DNA from: an uncultured Clostridia bacterium | GTDB lineage: Bacteria > Bacillota > Clostridia > Christensenellales > UBA1242 | DNA length: 64,000 bases | Direction of reading: 5' to 3' | Assembly: GCA_930990975.1 (NCBI GenBank) | Contig: CAKNRR010000002.1 | Location: 204 to 64,203 of the forward strand | Shown: piece after piece, positions 9,845 through 63,075 of the stretch | Position numbering within the stretch: the first letter of the stretch is position 1 | How the letters are laid out: each line of letters begins with the position of its first letter | The notes under the pieces: model-generated | Told to the model about the DNA's origin: nothing | Seen by the model: the letters and a program-made list of their open reading frames with translations, nothing else | Databases searched by the model: none | Position numbers and translations under genes: made by a program

Positions 9845-9891
9845 TAAACACAATATAAGCTATTATGCTTATAAAACATAATACTAAATAA

Positions 9892-9926
9892 GCTATTATG
9901 CACTGCATAATAGTACTTTTATTTTT
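9892..9926 (+). terminator. AT-rich hairpin terminator after spoVAE (member of the TATTATGC palindrome family)
   Basis: CTATTATGC-act-GCATAATAG followed by tacTTTTATTTTTATTT. Confidence 0.55.
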
Positions 9927-23392: not shown

Positions 23393-23490
23393 ATAATTTT
23401 CTAATATTATCGTCATTTTCCTTTATATTTCGAGCTATTATGTAATGTTTATATAACTATTACATAATAGTACATAATAATACATCAAAG

Positions 23491-27604: not shown

Positions 27605-28243
27605 ATGAAAAAAATCGATTCTAAAGAAATTTGTGAGAAATTGGATTATTTGTTTCCAGCAGTAGAGTGTGAGTTGAAATTCAATTCAACTTATGAACTG
27701 CTTGTTGCTGTAATTTTGTCTGCTCAATGTACTGATAAAAGAGTTAATGTAGTCACAAATGAATTGTTTAAAGAATATAACACTCCAGAAAAAATGTTGA
27801 AATTGACGCAGGAAGAGTTGGAGCAAAAAATTCATTCTTGTGGATTTTATCACAATAAAGCAAAAAACATCTTATCCATGAGTAAAGATCTTATAGATAA
27901 GTTTGGAGGAGAAGTTCCAAATGATTTAGACAAGTTACAGACTCTTGCAGGAGTTGGTAGAAAAACAGCAAATGTTGTTTACTCTGAAGCTTTTAAGGGA
28001 GATGCAATCGCTGTCGATACACATGTGCTTAGGGTGTCGAATAGACTAGGCTTAGTTAAAACGGACAATCCTTTAAAATGTGAATTGGCATTAATGGATG
28101 TTTTTGATAAAGATAAATGGGGGAAGCTTCATTTACAGTTGGTCCATTTTGGAAGATATGTTTGTAAGGCGATAAAACCACAGTGTGATAATTGCTTATT
28201 TAAGGATAAATGTCAGTATTATGCAACGCATAATACTGTATAA
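27605..28243 (+). CDS. nth: Endonuclease III
   Basis: HhH LAGVGRKTANVV. Fe-S cluster loop CKAIKPQCDNCLFKDKC. Confidence 0.85.
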   Translation: MKKIDSKEICEKLDYLFPAVECELKFNSTYELLVAVILSAQCTDKRVNVVTNELFKEYNTPEKMLKLTQEELEQKIHSCGFYHNKAKNILSMSKDLIDKFGGEVPNDLDKLQTLAGVGRKTANVVYSEAFKGDAIAVDTHVLRVSNRLGLVKTDNPLKCELALMDVFDKDKWGKLHLQLVHFGRYVCKAIKPQCDNCLFKDKCQYYATHNTV

Positions 28244-40627: not shown

Positions 40628-41497
40628 CTAAAATAGCTTTGTTAAACAGTCTTTAAAATCATTTGGAAATGGTATTTCAAAAGATAATACATTATCGAGA
40701 TATGGATGAAAAAATGACACATTTTTGCATATAAGGGCAGTATGTTTTATTAGGGTGGAAAGACTTCCGTAAATATTATCGCCTAATAATGGGCGGTTTA
40801 TTGATGAAAGATGCAATCTTATTTGGTGTGTACGGCCATGAACAAGCTCAAGCTTTATAAGACTATAATACTTATTAAATTTTATAGGATAAACATAGGT
40901 TGTGGCAGGCTTACCATCTTCAGCAATAACTCTTTGAAGGTCATTTCTTCCGTTCTCATTTATTGTCTTGATATTTTTATCAATTATTGTTTGAGAGCTT
41001 ATACAGCCTTCACAAATTGCATAATATTGTTTTTTGATTTCTTTTAAGTCTTTTTGAGCAATACTATCTTTGGCGACAATTATAATGCCAGCAGTGTCTT
41101 TGTCGAGTCTGTTTATTATTCTTAAAGTAAAATCAGGATCTTTAGTGTCCATATAATGACAAATAGCTCCAGCAAGATTATAATTATAATGAGAACGGCT
41201 TGGCATACATGGAAGTCCTGCGGGTTTGTTGATTAGCAGATAATACTCATCCTCATATACAATATCAAGTGGTATTATGCATTGCATAATACTGCTTTTA
41301 GGGCTGGGGTCACTGTTGACTTCTAAAATATCACCAGCTTTAAGGCTTGCATTGATGTTGGTTGGCTTGTCATTTATCTTAATGTATCCAAAAACTTTTC
41401 TTAAATTTGTTATATAATTTTCAGCAAATTGATTATCTTTTAAATAGTGGTAAATGCTTTTATAGTTTTTTGTTATATTGTATTTTCTGGTCTTCAT
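40628..41497 (-). CDS. RluA-family pseudouridine synthase
   Basis: Catalytic motif NRLDKDTAGIIIVAKD, plus HGRTHQIRLHL. Confidence 0.8.
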   Translation of the reverse strand: MKTRKYNITKNYKSIYHYLKDNQFAENYITNLRKVFGYIKINDKPTNINASLKAGDILEVNSDPSPKSSIMQCIIPLDIVYEDEYYLLINKPAGLPCMPSRSHYNYNLAGAICHYMDTKDPDFTLRIINRLDKDTAGIIIVAKDSIAQKDLKEIKKQYYAICEGCISSQTIIDKNIKTINENGRNDLQRVIAEDGKPATTYVYPIKFNKYYSLIKLELVHGRTHQIRLHLSSINRPLLGDNIYGSLSTLIKHTALICKNVSFFHPYLDNVLSFEIPFPNDFKDCLTKLF

Positions 41498-41678: not shown

Positions 41679-41694
41679 CTAAAACATAATAAAA

Positions 41695-41953
41695 GCTATG
41701 ATGAAAGAGTAGTAATAGAATTGATTTATCAAAGAGAGTTTGTCCTTGGCTGAAAGACAGATATAATAGATTTTATGAATTCACTTTCTAGCTACATTTA
41801 TGAAGTTTTGCATTGTTGTAATAAAGTGTAAAATGCGTAGTTTATGTCGTTATGCCTGCGTAAATGGTTTTAATAAGGATTGATAAAATCAATTAAAGTT
41901 AGGTGGTACCACGAAAAGTATTCTTTCGTCCTAATAGGAAGAATACTTTTTTT
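41695..41953 (+). promoter_or_regulatory. T-box riboswitch leader, Phe specifier (UUC)
   Basis: GA/K-turn ATGATGAAAGAGTAG. Stem I AGAGAG...TGGCTGAAAG. Specifier gaaTTCA (~41780). T-box AAAGTTAGGTGGTACCACG. Terminator AGTATTCTT...AAGAATACTTTTTTT. Confidence 0.8.
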
Positions 41954-52000: not shown

Positions 52001-53035
52001 TTATTGATTTATTTTTACTTTATCTGCTACATCTTTTCTCATATCTTCACTTATAGCTGCATAATGCTTCTTTGTTGTGTTGACATCTTTATGTCCTAAA
52101 ACATCTGCAACAATATAGATATCATGGGTTTCTTTATAAAGATTTGTGCCAAATGTGCTTCTTAGTTTATGTGGAGATATTTTTTTTAAAGGTGTTGCAA
52201 TTTGAGCGAATTTTTTAACAAGATTTTCAACCGCGCGTATAGATATTCTTTTGTTTTGCAAAGATATAAACATTGCATTTTCGTCTTCAGGAAGATTTAA
52301 AGTAGCCCTTTTTTCTAACCATGTTTTGAGTGCAAGAGCGACTTCTTTAGAAAAATAAAGTGTTGTCTGGTTTCCGCCTTTTCTAGTGACCAAAAAGGCA
52401 TTTTGTGAGAAATCAAAACTTTCAATATTTAATCCGACAAGCTCTGATATACGAATCCCAGTTCCTAAAAATAAAGTAATGATGGCATTATCTCTTTCAA
52501 AAGTGTTTTTGTTGTATTGTTGTTGGTGCTTAGAAAACTCGCAAGGATTTTCAACGGCGTTCATCATTCTGCTGACCTCGTTATTTTCAAGTCTTATGAT
52601 TTCTTTATTGTGTAATTTAGGAGTGTCTATTTTGCTGACTACATTTGATTCTATCATATCATGATTAAATAAGTACTTGAAGAAACTTCTTAAAGATGCA
52701 AGTTTTCTTGCTTTCCCTCGTTCATCATTCTTATATTGTTTGTCGTCTAATTGATAGAAAGACAAATATGACAAATATTGTTCTATGTTTCTTGCTTTGA
52801 GGGTGTTTAAGTCATTTAATGTTATTTCTATTTCTTTTTTATGAAAAACGAATTGTGATAAGTAATTATAGAAAATAAACAGGTCCATTGAGTAGTTGTA
52901 TCTCGTAAGTGATGAAGTGTTGCTTTCTATACCAATAAAAAAGTCAAGACAGTAGTCGGGGAGTCTTTCAGTGTATTTAGACATTTTTAATCTGTTTTGT
53001 AAATCTCGTTTTTCGTAAAAACTTATCTTTTTCAT
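52001..53035 (-). CDS. Tyrosine recombinase, XerS-like architecture
   Basis: Catalytic region GTGIRISEL, VTRKGG, HKLRSTFGTNLY, LGHKDVNTTKKHY (R-H-R-Y). The N-terminal LPDYCLDFF...SSLTRYNYSMDLFIFYNYL resembles the XerS N-domain pattern. Confidence 0.75.
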   Translation of the reverse strand: MKKISFYEKRDLQNRLKMSKYTERLPDYCLDFFIGIESNTSSLTRYNYSMDLFIFYNYLSQFVFHKKEIEITLNDLNTLKARNIEQYLSYLSFYQLDDKQYKNDERGKARKLASLRSFFKYLFNHDMIESNVVSKIDTPKLHNKEIIRLENNEVSRMMNAVENPCEFSKHQQQYNKNTFERDNAIITLFLGTGIRISELVGLNIESFDFSQNAFLVTRKGGNQTTLYFSKEVALALKTWLEKRATLNLPEDENAMFISLQNKRISIRAVENLVKKFAQIATPLKKISPHKLRSTFGTNLYKETHDIYIVADVLGHKDVNTTKKHYAAISEDMRKDVADKVKINQ

Positions 53036-53257
53036 GTTATTATTATATCATTATGAAATCGAAATTACAAATAAAATTTTATTTATGCGTAAAAGTTTTT
53101 TATAATACAGTATATATTGTTTTATATATAAGACATAATACTATATCTACGATAAATTAAATTTTAGAAGAAAGATGTCATGATTGAAAGATATGGAGCT
53201 TTTGGATCGAAACAAGAAACTTATTTCAATATCTGATATGATTTTTTCAATATTTAT

Positions 53258-53286
53258 TTGACTAATTTAAATTATGAAAGTATAAT
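53258..53286 (+). promoter_or_regulatory. Sigma-A-like promoter for serS
   Basis: TTGACT, 17 nt, TATAAT. No T-box motifs seen upstream. Confidence 0.5.
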
Positions 53287-53306
53287 TAACATACGAGGTG
53301 TTAATT

Positions 53307-54599
53307 ATGATAGATATTAATTTGATTAGAACTAATCCTGAACTAGTAAAGGAAAATATTAAAAAGAAATTTCAAGATCATAAACTTGAATATGTTGATA
53401 AAGTGCTTTCACTGGACGAACAATTAAGAGCTCTTAAAAAAGAAGGCGATGAACTACGATCAAAAAGAAATAGTCTGAGCAGTCAAATTGGCTTATTAAT
53501 GAGAGAAAAAAAGATTGATGAAGCTAATAAAATAAAAGCTGAAGTTGTTCAAAACAATAAGAGAATTGAAGAAGTTGAAAATGAAGAGACTGAAATTGCT
53601 GCTCAATTAAAAAAATATATGATGTCTATTCCTAATATTATAGCTGATGATGTGCCTATTGGAAAAGATGATAGCCAAAATGTTCAAAGATTAACTGTTG
53701 GAGAAGCTAAAGTCCCAAATTATGCAATTCCTTATCATGCTGACATTTTAGAAAGCTTGAATGGCTTAGATTTGGATAGTGCTAGAAGAACAAGCGGAAA
53801 TGGCTTTTATTATTTAACTGGAGATATAGCAAGATTGCATTCAGCTATATTGTCTTATGCTAGAGATTATATGATAAACCAAGGTTTTACTTATTGTATA
53901 CCACCATTTATGATTAGAAGCGATGTTGTAAATGGCGTTATGAGTTTTGAAGAAATGGAAAACATGATGTATAAAATTGAAGGCGAAGACCTTTATCTTA
54001 TAGGAACTAGCGAACATTCAATGATAGGCAGATTTAAAGATACAATATTGAAGGAAGAAAATTTGCCTTTATTACTAACTTCTTATTCTCCATGTTTTAG
54101 AAAGGAAGTTGGTGCACATGGTATTGAAGAAAGAGGAATTTATAGAGTACATCAATTTGAAAAGCAAGAAATGATTGTGATTTGCAAGCCAGAAGATTCA
54201 ATGGATTGGTATAATAAGATGTGGCAAATCTCTTCAAACTTCTTTGCTTCATTAGATATTCCTCATGAAGTTATGGAATGTTGCAGTGGCGATTTAGCTG
54301 ATTTAAAAGTAAAATCTTGTGATATAAATGCTTGGAGTCCACGACAAAAAAGATATTTTGGAGAGCTTGGTTCTTGCTCTAATTTAAGTGATGCTCAAGC
54401 TAGACGCTTAGGAATAAAGTTTAAAACTGAAGACGGAATGAAATTTGCTCATACATTAAACAATACTGTTGTAGCGCCTCCTAGAATGCTTATCGCATTT
54501 TTAGAAAACAATTTAAATGAAGATGGAAGTGTTAATATACCAGTTGCATTAAGACCTTATATGGGCGGAAAAGATAAGATATATCCTGCAAAAAAATAA
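53307..54599 (+). CDS. serS: Serine--tRNA ligase
   Basis: MIDINLIRTNPE N-terminal coiled-coil arm. Class II motifs FRKEVGAHG and HTLNNTVVAPPR. Start at ATG 53307. Confidence 0.9.
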   Translation: MIDINLIRTNPELVKENIKKKFQDHKLEYVDKVLSLDEQLRALKKEGDELRSKRNSLSSQIGLLMREKKIDEANKIKAEVVQNNKRIEEVENEETEIAAQLKKYMMSIPNIIADDVPIGKDDSQNVQRLTVGEAKVPNYAIPYHADILESLNGLDLDSARRTSGNGFYYLTGDIARLHSAILSYARDYMINQGFTYCIPPFMIRSDVVNGVMSFEEMENMMYKIEGEDLYLIGTSEHSMIGRFKDTILKEENLPLLLTSYSPCFRKEVGAHGIEERGIYRVHQFEKQEMIVICKPEDSMDWYNKMWQISSNFFASLDIPHEVMECCSGDLADLKVKSCDINAWSPRQKRYFGELGSCSNLSDAQARRLGIKFKTEDGMKFAHTLNNTVVAPPRMLIAFLENNLNEDGSVNIPVALRPYMGGKDKIYPAKK

Positions 54600-54627: not shown

Positions 54628-55599
54628 ATGCCAAATATAAATGTATCAAAAGATTTAATTGTTAATATAGCAGAACAAGAGAATACAAAATATATCAAAA
54701 CAGTAAATAAATCAATTAACCAAATTATTGGTCAGGCTATCAAAGATTTGTCTGAAAAGATATCTTTTGTTTCTTTGAAAAATGTTATTTTGCAGCCAGC
54801 TAATGAATTGATTAGCGGAGCTTTTATTGATGCATCTTTATTTATTTATTTGTTAGGAGTTCAGAATCCGCAATTAGAACTAAATACAAATCAAAAAGAA
54901 AGTGCTTGGAAAAGCTTTAAAGACCGAGTTGTTTGGGCATGGAATAATCGCAAAAGATTTATAAAAAGGAAGAAAAAACATAGAAAAAGTAAAAAATCTA
55001 AAGAAATTGAAACACTTGATAATGATTATAAATTTGAACCAAACACATATACAATTTATCAATTAACTGAAGATTTGCAAAAGGCTATGATTCAGTATTT
55101 ATGTGAAACAAGCATGGTATACATGAATGACAATGTATTGCAAATTGTTGGAAAAGATGATTTTGGAGCTAATACGAAGATTATAATTTATGTTGTAAAT
55201 TATGATGGTGAAAAATTCAAATATTATGCAGGCAAAAAAGAAGGTTTTAAATTGATAGACATAGATTCTCGCTTAAAATGTCTTGAAAATAAAATAATGA
55301 CAGTAGGTGAAAATTTTATCAAAATTCTTAAGGTGTTTAATTCATTGTATTATAATATAAATGGCATTATGTGTAATCAAATTTTTATGGAAAGCATTTT
55401 GTGTTCATGTCCAGAAGATTTGTTTTTTGGTGATGACATTTATAAAGTATTTGTAAAAATAGTTAATTATTTATCTATAAAAACACTGAAAGATATTAAG
55501 TCAATAAACAATTCGCAATTAACCATATTTAAAGATGAAATTTGTGGAAACTGCGGATTAGGATTCAATAAAATGCTTTCTAAAATATTGAAGAATTAA
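54628..55599 (+). CDS. Hypothetical protein, nucleotidyltransferase-fold-like (SMODS/CD-NTase-like layout) with degenerate catalytic motifs and a poly-basic insert
   Basis: ISGAFIDASLFIYLLG sits where hG[GS]...DhDh is expected. C-terminal FMESILCSCPEDLFFGDD resembles the LE.L.YN.P..F helix of SMODS-type NTases. The insert is NRKRFIKRKKKHRKSKKSKE. The fold call is tentative. Confidence 0.35.
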   Translation: MPNINVSKDLIVNIAEQENTKYIKTVNKSINQIIGQAIKDLSEKISFVSLKNVILQPANELISGAFIDASLFIYLLGVQNPQLELNTNQKESAWKSFKDRVVWAWNNRKRFIKRKKKHRKSKKSKEIETLDNDYKFEPNTYTIYQLTEDLQKAMIQYLCETSMVYMNDNVLQIVGKDDFGANTKIIIYVVNYDGEKFKYYAGKKEGFKLIDIDSRLKCLENKIMTVGENFIKILKVFNSLYYNINGIMCNQIFMESILCSCPEDLFFGDDIYKVFVKIVNYLSIKTLKDIKSINNSQLTIFKDEICGNCGLGFNKMLSKILKN

Positions 55600-55800
55600 A
55601 GCAAAAAGTAATAGAACAAGATTTGTATATAAAGAATTATAAAAAAGGTTTTGTTTAAAGAATGCTATTATGAAAAATTGTTTTAATATAAAAAGGATTA
55701 AGCTATGATTTAAAAATATGAATATTAATGATTATTTATGCAAATAAAATAATTATTAAAAAATAACATAATAGACTTTATTTTACCGGTATTATGTGCT

Positions 55801-55836
55801 TATCTCTGCGTAAAACTTGTGTTTTACGCAGAGATA
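55801..55836. other. 16-bp perfect hairpin / palindrome with 4-nt loop
   Basis: TATCTCTGCGTAAAAC-ttgt-GTTTTACGCAGAGATA read directly. No adjacent U tract on either strand. Confidence 0.85.
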
Positions 55837-55884
55837 TAGATGTTGCACTTCCTTTTTAAAATGTTGGTTTTAATAAAAAATACA

Positions 55885-56122
55885 GACCCCTTTTAGCGAT
55901 TTTTGTCAATACAAACAGCAAGAAAGTTTATCATATACCCCTTTTCCCTACAAATTTTATGCCCCTATTATTTAATTTCATTTTAAAACTCACCTATTAT
56001 CAAATTTTTGATTTTTATATAATTATGGAGTTGCTCTAATTAATGCTTATGCCTACTTAGTAATTTATTACATGTAGAGTCTCTATTAAAAAACAAGCTT
56101 ATAAATTTGAGCTTGTTTTTTT
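55885..56122 (+). ncRNA. Candidate small RNA with three C-rich motifs, ending at an orphan terminator (speculative)
   Basis: GACCCCTTTTAGCG (~55885), ATACCCCTTTTCCC (~55935), GCCCCT (~55961). The terminator at 56087-56122 has no track ORF (60 aa or longer) within ~250 nt on either side. No convincing promoter found. Confidence 0.2.
56087..56122. terminator. Bidirectional rho-independent terminator in the region with no track ORF
   Basis: AAAAAACAAGCT-tataaatttg-AGCTTGTTTTTTT. Confidence 0.7.
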
Positions 56123-56385: not shown

Positions 56386-56973
56386 TCATACTACTTTTGT
56401 TCTGAGTAAAAATGCATAGTTTTTCAATTCTCTCCTATATTGTTTATAATTAGGCACAAATTGTTCAACTAAAGCCCAAAACTTTTTTGAGTGATTGAAT
56501 TCTATACCATGACATAGTTCATGCAAAATAATATATTTTATTATATCTAAAGGTAAAATGATTATTTTCCAATTTAAGCTCATATTCTTATGATAGTCTA
56601 AACTACCCCATATTCGAACGGAGTTCATTATCCTTAAATTTTTGAATTGTAAATTAAGTCGCAATGACATTTCTTCCACTATCTTTTTTATATCATTGTC
56701 AAACGCAGATTTGTAAAAATCAATTTTATTTCCATCAAATTTTATAGGAGTATTATAAATGTAAACATAATTTTCAAAGTCGTATTGAGATCTTTTATTA
56801 TGTAATTCTTCTATAGACTTCAATTGTTTTTTGATCCACTTATTCTTCGAAATAACAAAATCGTCTATAATATCTTTAGAGATATTTCTGGGAGCATTTA
56901 CAATAACTTCTCCGCTGCTATTTATCCTTATAGAAAGTCTTTTAATTTTAGCCCTTTTTAATATGTATTCCAT
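56386..56973 (-). CDS. DUF45 / YgjP-like M48-family metal-dependent hydrolase
   Basis: IKRLSIRINSSGEVIVNAP N-terminus and the zinc motif ILHELCHGIEFNHSKKFW (HExxH). Confidence 0.7.
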   Translation of the reverse strand: MEYILKRAKIKRLSIRINSSGEVIVNAPRNISKDIIDDFVISKNKWIKKQLKSIEELHNKRSQYDFENYVYIYNTPIKFDGNKIDFYKSAFDNDIKKIVEEMSLRLNLQFKNLRIMNSVRIWGSLDYHKNMSLNWKIIILPLDIIKYIILHELCHGIEFNHSKKFWALVEQFVPNYKQYRRELKNYAFLLRTKVV

Positions 56974-57019: not shown

Positions 57020-57040
57020 CTATTATGCAATACATAATAG
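57020..57040. promoter_or_regulatory. Palindrome CTATTATG-caata-CATAATAG in the divergent DUF45 / PadR-fusion intergenic region (candidate operator)
   Basis: 8-bp arms read directly, ~24 nt upstream of the -35 of the PadR-fusion promoter. Confidence 0.35.
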
Positions 57041-57109: not shown

Positions 57110-59005
57110 ATGGAGTTTTATGCCAAAGGTCAATTATCTTTTTTGATATTAACTTGTTTGCTCGAAAGAGATTTCTATGGGCTTGATTTTATAAGTGAGA
57201 TATATAATAAAAGCAATGGGCGCATAGAATTAAAAAAGCCTAGTGTTTATTCTAACCTAACCAGAATGGAAAAACAAGGTTATGTTTCATCCTATTTAAA
57301 AAGTAGTGATGTTGGACCTAATAGAAAATATTATTCTATTACTGAGAAAGGAAGAGGTTTTTATAAAGAACTTCAGGAGTATTTTGCAAGAAATAAAATA
57401 GATGTTTTTAGAGATTTCCAAGACGAAGAAGATGTAAGTAATAAATCAGTAAATTTGAAAACTTCTATTTTTGGAAATAAAGATTATACTCAAGCAAGTA
57501 TAGAAGAAGATGAAGAAAACAATGAAGAAATAAATAGTTATATTGAAGAGGAAGCTGATAGCGATTATTTTGATTTCTCAAATTTGAGTAATGATCAGTC
57601 TGACAAAAAACAAGACAATAAAAGCGAAGTTATTGAAAAAAGTGAAACTCGTGAAATTGTTTCATCTTCAAATGATTCCCCTGCTCCTAGCACTATAATG
57701 AGTGAAAGTTTCGAGGAAAAGAATGTTCAAGTTCAAGAAGAAAAATATGATAAAACTACAGTTGATTCAGGGAATAATACATATTCAATAAGATCATTGT
57801 TATCTAATAAAAATAATGATGAAAATGCTTCTGATAAAAGCTTGATTGAAAGCAATGAAAACTCTAATGTGGCAGAAGATACTTCAAACAATAAGCAACA
57901 AGAAGAGAAAAAGGATGATGGAGTTTTCTTAAGCGATAAAACAATTAAAGAATATAACAAAAGACTGTATGATATATCAAAAGATATTAACAAATATAAA
58001 AGAAAAAGAAGTTTTGCAGAAGATCAAATGTCTTTTACTGTCGAGTCGCCTTTAGCTGAGTCAAATGAAAGAACCAAGGCGAATATTGAGGAATTTAAGT
58101 CTTCTATTTTGGAGAATAAGGGTAAGATATCAACAGAAAATAATAATTATGATTTTGCAAAACAAATGTCTTACAGATATAGAAATAATGCCAATGTTAG
58201 AGAGGATACTTCCCCTATTCAAAACAACTATTATCAAAAACCTACGAATAACATACAGAACGAAAGTGCACCACAAGATGACGGAAAATTTATAACTAAT
58301 CGTATAGAGGTGTCTCAGATTGAAAGAGCTAAAAAAATAGAACCTCCAAGGCTAAAAATTGTTCCAGAAACCTCTTCAAGAGATAGTTATAAGATGCCAC
58401 CTCCTAAAAGAGATGTAAATATTGACCCTTCTCATAAAGAAATATTGTCAAAGTTATATTCAAAAACAAAAAATTCTGATGCTATGGATATAAGAGAAGA
58501 TGCTCTATATGACTATGGAGATTTACAAGAATTTTATAAAGATCAGAACATTGAATTTAGCGTTTATAAAAAGCCTGCAGAAAAGAATGAACATAACACA
58601 AATAAGCTCTATTTAATAGTTTCTTTGATAACTTTCTTTGTAGCAAGCGCTATGTCAGCTATCTTGTATACAATTCTTTATAATACATCTTTGTTAAATA
58701 GCTCAACAACATTTTTATATATCTTGCTCCCAGCATTATTATTAATTGATATTGCTTGGAAGTTCTACAACTACAAAAAATATCTAGGTTGGCTACCTTC
58801 TCAAATGTTGCCACAATGGAAAATTTGGGCTATAACATTTTTATTAATTGGATGTGTAGTAGGTCTTAATTTTATATTTGGTTTAGCACCTTCAACATTT
58901 GCACAATTTGCAACAACAACATTATTACCTATTGTTATAATATTTGTTGTTATGCCACTAAGATATTATGTTAAGAGATATTTACTTATTAAATATTGGA
59001 AATAA
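57110..59005 (+). CDS. PadR-family winged-helix domain fused to a ~400-aa disordered linker and a C-terminal multi-TM domain
   Basis: N-terminus LILTCLLERDFYGLDFISEI...PSVYSNLTRMEKQGYVSSY...RKYYSITEKGRGFY (PadR). D/E/N/S/K-rich low complexity follows. The last ~130 aa hold four hydrophobic helices. Confidence 0.7.
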   Translation: MEFYAKGQLSFLILTCLLERDFYGLDFISEIYNKSNGRIELKKPSVYSNLTRMEKQGYVSSYLKSSDVGPNRKYYSITEKGRGFYKELQEYFARNKIDVFRDFQDEEDVSNKSVNLKTSIFGNKDYTQASIEEDEENNEEINSYIEEEADSDYFDFSNLSNDQSDKKQDNKSEVIEKSETREIVSSSNDSPAPSTIMSESFEEKNVQVQEEKYDKTTVDSGNNTYSIRSLLSNKNNDENASDKSLIESNENSNVAEDTSNNKQQEEKKDDGVFLSDKTIKEYNKRLYDISKDINKYKRKRSFAEDQMSFTVESPLAESNERTKANIEEFKSSILENKGKISTENNNYDFAKQMSYRYRNNANVREDTSPIQNNYYQKPTNNIQNESAPQDDGKFITNRIEVSQIERAKKIEPPRLKIVPETSSRDSYKMPPPKRDVNIDPSHKEILSKLYSKTKNSDAMDIREDALYDYGDLQEFYKDQNIEFSVYKKPAEKNEHNTNKLYLIVSLITFFVASAMSAILYTILYNTSLLNSSTTFLYILLPALLLIDIAWKFYNYKKYLGWLPSQMLPQWKIWAITFLLIGCVVGLNFIFGLAPSTFAQFATTTLLPIVIIFVVMPLRYYVKRYLLIKYWK

Positions 59006-62991: not shown

Positions 62992-63075
62992 TTATACTAT
63001 TCTTTTATAATTTTTTAATTCACATAATTACTATATTTAGTATTATGTATGACATATTATTTAAAATATATTGTA

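Follow-up and report, generated by a model that had tools for sequence, protein, structure and literature searches.

A predicted noncatalytic CdnE-like protein encoded beside a probable dif-type site in uncultured gut Clostridia

INTRODUCTION

CD-NTases are the signal-making enzymes of antiphage defense, and here we compare them with a gene, called X throughout (as is its protein), that occupies positions 54628 to 55599 of a 64,000-nucleotide stretch of DNA from an uncultured Clostridia bacterium (contig CAKNRR010000002.1; "the window") and is followed by a conserved palindrome. The closest described relatives of X are the CdnE-type CD-NTases (clade E of CBASS, e.g., RmCdnE [6E0K] and LpCdnE [7X4T]), with which it shares a predicted two-lobed fold (TM 0.6 to 0.69), a size of ~300 amino acids, a C-terminal "hhE.hhYNhP..hF" helix, and a homology picked up by sequence profile; these enzymes also carry a short basic patch at the loop where X has a basic segment. 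X differs from them in that it apparently has neither the GS loop nor the catalytic carboxylates, in that its basic loop is expanded to ~20 to 30 amino acids, and in that its gene is chromosomal, single copy, and syntenic and lies at the replication terminus, with no Cap effector or defense island.

MiD51, MiD49, and other Mab21-fold pseudoenzymes likewise keep a cGAS-like fold without transferase chemistry, and MiD51 is among the structural (Foldseek) matches of X (E of ~2e-4), but MiD51 and MiD49 are eukaryotic mitochondrial receptors, with no sequence relationship to X beyond the fold. The cGAS and OAS sensors belong to the same fold superfamily, and their basic surfaces or tails bind DNA or RNA, making them a model for the binding that we propose for X; in these sensors binding activates catalysis, whereas X appears to have no catalytic residues left.

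The palindrome downstream of X has its nearest described counterpart in the XerS/difSL module of streptococci and lactococci (PMC1914069, PMC2965235), in which the experimentally defined lactococcal difSL site, ATCTTTCCGAAAAACTGTAATTTTCTTGACA (PMC2965235), lies directly upstream of xerS at the terminus (PMC1914069). On balance, we lean toward the view that X is a domesticated, noncatalytic CdnE-like protein, probably one that binds nucleic acid, in a terminus-proximal housekeeping locus, and that the adjoining element is a dif-like site.

RESULTS

X is a conserved gene with a predicted CD-NTase fold

The gene and its C-terminal motif are placed as follows:

54628 to 55599, forward strand: gene X, CdnE-like CD-NTase-fold protein apparently without catalytic motifs; open reading frame (ORF) of 323 amino acids with an ATG start
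55384 to 55437, forward strand: CD_NTase_C-type helix motif, residues 253 to 270 (FMESILCSCPEDLFFGDD); profile match to RmCdnE 6e0k residues 212 to 258

X is a real, conserved gene and not a chance ORF. At a homologue cutoff of E ≤ 1e-3 it had 82 relatives, nearly all of 310 to 335 amino acids and with identities of 28 to 100%, and it was present once per genome in at least 66 GTDB species genomes (66 loci). All of these hosts are metagenome-assembled genomes of uncultured gut Clostridia, a few of them labeled Christensenella, Catabacter, or Candidatus Caccovivens, and X is a vertically inherited chromosomal gene of this clade. An alignment of 79 sequences of the family contained 14 invariant and ~38 nearly invariant columns, with R215 and K222 among the invariant residues. 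The ORF, and all of the strings quoted for it in the original prediction on this DNA, are present in the sequence, in which residues 57 to 75 of X read PANELISGAFIDASLFIYL; it had also been stated that the next ~790 nt hold no listed ORF of 60 amino acids or more, and we found none between 55600 and 56385 (786 nt).

Direct scans of X against Pfam, NCBIfam, PADLOC, and PDB sequences gave no usable match, so that its link to the CD-NTases came solely from the family profile and from a predicted structure. An AlphaFold2 (AF2) model built from the family alignment was confident (pLDDT 85.9, pTM 0.80) and showed a Pol-beta-like nucleotidyltransferase (NTase) core with a C-terminal helical lobe, the arrangement that characterizes the CD-NTase fold. 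Foldseek found 42 matches to this model in the PDB at E ≤ 1e-3, the top 17 of which were all bacterial CD-NTases (E of 2e-8 to 7e-5). The best was LpCdnE (7x4t; E = 1.9e-8, TM 0.61/0.67), and the leading group comprised LpCdnE, RmCdnE, EmCdnE, ClCdnE, EfCdnE, and CdnC, followed by cGAS, MiD51, and DncV, with a TUTase among the weaker matches.

When the family profile was run exhaustively against 1.84 billion proteins, the tail of its matches (E of 2e-9 to 4e-4) consisted of proteins called by PADLOC as CBASS "Cyclase" (oligonucleotide cyclases). In a weak match, the same profile aligned the C-terminal helix of X with "YFLECLLYNVPDSKF" of RmCdnE, and distant relatives of X have weak precomputed matches to PF26305 (CD_NTase_C), of which the window protein itself has none. 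We concluded, from the model and the profile, that X is predicted to have a CD-NTase fold closest to that of the clade E cyclases (CdnE) and that it is detectably homologous to CBASS cyclases at the level of sequence. The earlier guess of an NTase or CD-NTase-like fold was thereby borne out by Foldseek, model, and profile alike: the HHpred or Foldseek search proposed as a check, run here as Foldseek on the predicted structure, placed CD-NTases on top, and the helix said to be similar to the LE-L-YN-P--F motif is the one that aligns with RmCdnE.

X appears to lack the CD-NTase catalytic residues

For mapping of the active site, solved CdnE sequences were aligned by HMMER to an intermediate protein (P0193), and P0193, further intermediate relatives, and the X family were then aligned together. 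The reference motifs were QGS; SDVDVVV or SDVDICV; and DVVPA or DVIPC. The corresponding positions in X, with their composition in the 79-sequence alignment, are as follows:

54793 to 54849, forward strand: degenerate G[GS] loop and [DE]h[DE]h strand, residues 56 to 74 (QPANELISGAFIDASLFIY), placed by the alignment anchored on solved CdnE
N59, at the Gly of the GS loop: N in 78/79
E60, at the Ser of the GS loop: E in 79/79
Position 71 (L71 in the window protein), at the first Asp: variable, with D in 7/79 and E in 5/79
Position 73 (I73 in the window protein), at the second Asp: V, I, T, or A in 73/79
Position 184 (K184 in the window protein), at the third acid: K, Q, S, or R in 70/79

The placement of the third acid is less certain than the others, by about two residues either way, and the adjoining positions are also nonacidic. 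CD-NTases are recognized by G[G/S] after strand 1, by a [D/E]h[D/E]h metal-binding pair on strand 2, and by a third catalytic carboxylate (hDhhP[AC]), and in this alignment X shows none of the three. As judged from its sequence, X thus appears to be devoid of the Gly-Ser loop and of all three metal-binding carboxylates. The alignment to solved CdnE agrees with the earlier description of the catalytic positions as degenerate; as for the lone Asp reported among them, the residue (D68) is indeed conserved but does not align with any catalytic position.

Distant relatives keep part of the canonical set, namely, SDVDIII in P0163, ELEI in the P0185 group, and HGS together with DVDITPA in the relative at locus L179. 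Because these remoter proteins retain parts of the set, the window's clade looks like the degenerate end of a series. By this alignment, X would no longer make a nucleotide signal.

A basic loop is kept across the family

The other conspicuous feature of X is an insert rich in basic residues:

54946 to 55005, forward strand: poly-basic insert, residues 107 to 126 (NRKRFIKRKKKHRKSKKSKE), K/R-rich across the family

In the 79-sequence family, the basic segment between W105 and Y141 spans 22 to 41 amino acids, with a median of 15 K+R, and in the window protein it is predicted to be disordered (pLDDT < 50 at residues 121 to 133). Most of the net charge of X comes from this insert (pI 9.1 with it and 8.0 without it), and the median pI of the family is 9.4. 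The poly-basic insert noted at the outset is therefore real and is kept in composition, and X would act as a noncatalytic protein that binds nucleic acid via this loop.

The palindrome downstream of X is probably a difSL-like site

The element that follows X, the recombinase gene upstream, and the sequences associated with them are as follows:

55801 to 55836, no strand assigned: difSL-like palindrome, probable Xer recombination site, with arms at 55801 to 55816 and 55821 to 55836 and the center TTGT
55753 to 55800, no strand assigned: conserved flank of the site seen in the alignment, TTAT-N6-ATAACATAATAG-N14-GGTATTATG, with half-sites of a dispersed palindrome inside
52001 to 53035, reverse strand: XerS-like tyrosine recombinase gene; NF003462 (XerS) is the best NCBIfam match (E = 3e-51, 174 bits)
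53084 to 53095, forward strand: dif left-arm half-site TATGCGTAAAAG, ~50 nt upstream of the xer start

The element lies ~200 nt downstream of X and is a perfect 16-bp inverted repeat (16 + 16 bp) with an asymmetric center (folding z-score of −5.5). It is far better conserved than the X protein: the ~100 nt around it (~55741 to 55850) show 70 to 86% DNA identity in all 59 clade loci that reach past X. In each of these 59 loci it occurs once and always in the same orientation, and it is single copy in the 64-kb window.

We scanned metagenome contigs for the core pattern of the palindrome, keeping distinct palindromes whose arms matched at 12 or more of 15 positions, and found >120 matches that reduced to 93 distinct palindromes from many genomes, GC-richer ones included. 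More than 90 of these contigs have the palindrome next to a XerS-like gene and almost always without an X relative. In 40 palindrome contigs a xer homologue was present on the stored stretch; the palindrome was on the upstream side of xer in 40/40 and, in 28 of them, only 17 to 292 nt from the xer start codon. Its asymmetric center faces either way relative to xer, which argues against an element of the 5′ untranslated region (UTR). In the window itself, the palindrome is 2.8 kb from the xer gene, with serS and X in between.

These properties resemble those of the XerS/difSL module, in that a recombinase of ~350 amino acids with XerS as its best match is accompanied by two inverted arms around an asymmetric center, in most genomes just upstream of the recombinase gene and at a switch in GC skew. 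The window site reads ATCTCTGCGTAAAACTTGTGTTTTACGCAGAGAT; its left arm matches that of difSL at 12/15 positions, and the TGT of the center is common to both. The module differs from the described one in that the clostridial arms are longer and nearly perfectly symmetric, in that its hosts are Clostridia, in that the window clade has serS and X between recombinase gene and site, and in that the recombinase falls below the NF003462 cutoff (174 versus 267 bits, with XerC, XerA, and XerD slightly lower still). By its profile scores, then, the window recombinase appears XerS-like rather than a XerS equivalog.

Three features expected of a dimer-resolution module are present, namely, inverted arms and an asymmetric center like those of a known dif, linkage to a single Xer gene, and a position at the terminus as marked by the GC-skew switch. 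The skew of the window is +0.2 to +0.3 up to ~55.5 kb and negative beyond, and the orientation of its genes changes from forward to mostly reverse at the same point (55.5 to 56.5 kb); X is the last gene on its replichore. In the other loci, where 2.5 kb or more was available to each side of the palindrome, the skew passed from positive to negative across it in 18/28 metagenome loci and 31/48 genome loci and in the opposite direction in none. A classical Bacillus-type dif is absent from the window. We concluded that the downstream element is most likely a difSL-like recombination site, at the replication terminus, of a XerS-like recombinase.

RNA and other readings of the element

The original prediction had proposed a pseudoenzyme that binds an adjacently encoded RNA or DNA. 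The joint occurrence of gene family and element on which this turned was found in 59/59 clade loci, but it does not hold in the other direction, given the >90 contigs that have the element almost always without X. The proposal is not supported in its original form, in that the difSL likeness and the skew switch make the element the probable recombination site of another protein.

We also tested the element as RNA with a covariance model and covariation counts. Changes in the stem keep pairing (AU to CG in 15 sequences and GC to UA in 9), and covariation is present, but binding by a symmetric protein explains it equally well; the apparent covariation of the arms would arise because one recombinase binds both. 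The counts of G-U versus A-C in the stem carried no strand signal. Rfam gave no match for the element (none at E ≤ 1 in 52 to 58 kb, and at gathering score nothing except an unrelated T-box and a tRNA). A hairpin or small RNA was dropped as a candidate when the metagenome scan placed the palindrome beside xer.

Sigma-70 and sporulation-sigma promoters, sought by eye at the element, had unfit spacing and a −35 that was not conserved. For a small ORF across the hairpin (21 amino acids on the forward strand and 18 on the reverse), the substitutions keep pairing and not amino acids (M/L paired with I/R). A serS-X terminator was rejected on the grounds that no U-tract directly follows the stem in the window and that 0.7 to 1.4 kb is inserted in some loci, although the palindrome may still terminate read-through. 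An operator of the PadR-like regulator was considered since many contigs have the site between xer and padR; given the difSL likeness and the terminus position, this identity is less likely than dif, although the palindrome may have a second role as such an operator.

Several further observations concern the DNA around the site. Of the 49 intervals scanned, 26 contained the dif left-arm half-site, TATGCGTAAAA(G/T), and every one of these belongs to the clade with serS, where the half-site is placed between xer and serS; lineages that lack serS do not have it. An earlier integration at dif may have left it behind, or the XerS-like protein may regulate its own gene through it. At 25 to 150 nt past the dif-like site, and also beside the PadR promoter, C-rich motifs (CCCCTTTT or CCCCTATTTT; 55880 to 55975 in the window) recur in nearly all related loci and stand out in DNA of ~25% GC. 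Between the site and the 3′ end of the YgjP-like gene, a hairpin at 56088 to 56121 has the A-tract, 12-bp stem, and T-tract typical of a bidirectional intrinsic terminator; a consensus scan missed its AT-rich stem.

A dispersed 21-nt palindrome, sTATTATGCAnnGCATAATAs, recurs about once per 10 to 12 kb, with copies at 9893 to 9913, 28216 to 28236, 41272 to 41292, and 57020 to 57040 and variants at 9860 to 9884, 23435 to 23470, and 63040 to 63060. In most related loci it lies upstream of the PadR-like gene, the copy at 41272 is inside a pseudouridine-synthase-like coding region, and further copies directly precede terminators in 3′ UTRs (L064, L066, and the window at 23.4 kb). Its half-sites flank the dif-like site at 55767 to 55774 and 55789 to 55796.

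X lies among housekeeping genes and not in a defense operon

The conserved neighbors of X, in addition to the xer-like gene, are as follows:

53298 to 54599, forward strand: serS (TIGR00414, E = 1e-121), 28 nt upstream of X
56386 to 56973, reverse strand: YgjP-like (PF01863) gene, a conserved neighbor on the far side of the site
57110 to 59005, forward strand: conserved neighboring gene for a long PadR-family protein whose C-terminal domain is hydrophobic, with the 21-nt palindrome upstream (57020 to 57040)

Wherever X was at least 36% identical, every locus had the same order, i.e., xer-like (reverse), serS (forward), X (forward), the conserved element, an optional YgjP-like gene (reverse), and the long PadR-like gene (forward). 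serS adjoins X in all clade loci, with a gap of 1 to 62 nt in most of them; the two genes are likely cotranscribed, and X in the window clade would be expressed together with serS. Defense-system models (PADLOC) matched none of the neighbors of X, and a Cap effector operon (with optional Cap2/3, HORMA/TRIP13) of the kind that defines CBASS was absent, the neighbors being serS, xer, YgjP-like, and PadR-like genes in all loci. X is not part of a CBASS operon, in keeping with the earlier remark that no effector is adjacent; no defense gene is nearby.

The serS promoter is sigma-70-like and only ~10 to 20 nt before the start (53258 to 53307), and serS has no T-box leader, which is not a failure of detection because a T-box was detected elsewhere in the window (41689 to 41936). 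In very distant lineages, too, the genes for the YgjP-like HExxH protein and the PadR-family protein (600 to 840 amino acids) adjoin the dif-like site, in many cases with an ABC transporter after them. The PadR-family protein combines an N-terminal winged helix and a long linker of low complexity with the C-terminal hydrophobic domain, and it may act as a membrane-tethered regulator that has a protease as its partner. In a lineage in which X follows gapA, the gap after X (L062, 5343 to 5607, reverse strand; also L066 and L069) holds a small YtxH-like ORF and a large SRP RNA (Rfam RF01854, 148 bits), and the spoIIIA operon comes after it.

X-like genes occupy the xer-dif slot in distant lineages

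Using the family hidden Markov model, we found X-like genes in distant lineages (L078, L088, L179, L200, and L114) that lie between a reverse-strand xer and the palindrome and read toward the palindrome, with no serS. The palindrome follows the stop codon of the X-like gene by 52 nt in L078 (P0163) and by ~25 nt in L088, L179, and L200 (P0202), and beyond the site in these deep lineages are YgjP-like and long PadR-like genes. Since distant lineages have the slot without serS, the xer-X-dif arrangement is ancient, and serS looks like a later insertion and not an ancestral partner. In several deep lineages the slot between xer (reverse) and dif is held by the more canonical relatives of X, which would make DNA of the terminus or dif region the likeliest substrate of X, with X serving, for example, as an accessory or architectural factor.

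DISCUSSION

We lean toward X as a domesticated, noncatalytic CdnE-like protein near the terminus, and several observations weigh against this reading or against a tie between X and the site. Five acidic positions of the family (E60, D68, D149, D/E177, and D178) are nearly invariant and could form a noncanonical active site. Most xer/palindrome modules have no X-like gene, so that Xer/dif does not need X. In one lineage X lies after gapA and before the spoIIIA operon (L061 to L075), and X has no nearby palindrome in L060 and L076 (serS-X) or in L077; X is thus away from the site in some lineages, and its function does not need adjacency. The whole neighborhood is syntenic, which makes colocation alone weak evidence of shared function. 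On the positions of the genes, a link of X to Xer/dif is possible, and a role of X at the terminus can reasonably be inferred.

If the acidic residues mark a relocated metal site, X would still be an enzyme, i.e., an NTase that makes some nucleotide product or modifies nucleic acid. The positions are suggestive: E60 takes the place of the Ser in the GS loop, D68 immediately precedes the strand on which DxD is normally found, K176-D177-D178 does the same for the usual strand of the third acid, and distant relatives (P0163, the P0185 group, and L179) hold parts of the canonical set. Equivalents of E60 and D68 are, however, already present in relatives that still have ExE, which makes these residues ancestral and not compensating; the Gly and the Ser are gone along with all three of the canonical carboxylates; and no effector or receptor gene is among the neighbors. 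We consider this alternative unlikely. A second way to read the locus is through serS, with X a noncatalytic NTase-fold RNA binder that works with seryl-tRNA synthetase or on tRNA or other RNA, its terminus position being incidental. In most clade loci, one of them with an X of only 28% identity, the gap from serS to X is 1 to 62 nt; the protein is basic, many NTase-fold proteins act on RNA 3′ ends, and a TUTase is among the weaker fold matches, but the deeper relatives L078, L088, L179, and L200 lie between xer and dif without serS, and the lineage with gapA has X elsewhere. This reading strikes us as less likely again than a relocated active site.

The two remaining explanations we regard as very improbable, and equally so. 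X might be a decaying relic, with no present function, of a mobile element (IMEX-like) that carried CBASS and inserted at dif in the past, as the immediate proximity of X to the dif-like site, the conserved dif half-site on the xer side, and the loss of catalytic residues and of any effector would permit. The ORF is nevertheless full length and of constant size in at least 66 species, down to ~20 to 30% identity, and has 14 invariant residues and no frameshifts, from which we infer purifying selection on X. Alternatively, as the original prediction had it, X might be a pseudoenzyme that binds a structured RNA from the downstream hairpin. CdnE-type enzymes and OAS bind structured RNA, and hairpin and gene are found together, in fixed orientation and with compensatory stem changes, throughout the 59 clade loci. 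Against this stand the palindromes beside xer, in either orientation, in >90 contigs without X, the resemblance to difSL, the terminus position, the missing strand signal and Rfam match, and the 700 to 1,400 nt inserted between X and the element in L015 to L017.

Under our preferred reading of X as a noncatalytic, probably nucleic-acid-binding CdnE-like protein, one can go further and propose that the family is an immune-sensor fold domesticated for chromosome maintenance, a noncatalytic DNA-binding factor at the replication terminus of certain Clostridia that could modulate dimer resolution by the XerS-like protein at dif or organize or protect the dif region. We rank this extension between the relocated active site and the serS reading, that is, as improbable; if true, a chromosome-maintenance role would explain why the xer-dif slot has been kept across very deep divergence.

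The element itself would be of an ordinary kind, a dif-type site, and single-recombinase modules of the XerS/difSL-like type, each with a near-perfect palindromic site, appear to be widespread in Clostridia-like genomes; in the literature that we searched, we found no description of such a module in Clostridia. The site would be a practical terminus marker in fragmented metagenome-assembled genomes, and palindromic recombinase sites can mimic RNA covariation, which calls for caution in similar scans. X, for its part, is a new and, by its sequence, apparently noncatalytic branch of the CdnE-like CD-NTases. If a large, vertically inherited CD-NTase branch is indeed maintained by selection in a housekeeping locus without catalysis or effector, bacteria would have their own counterpart of the eukaryotic Mab21-fold pseudoenzymes, and an immune enzyme would have been co-opted for a different task.

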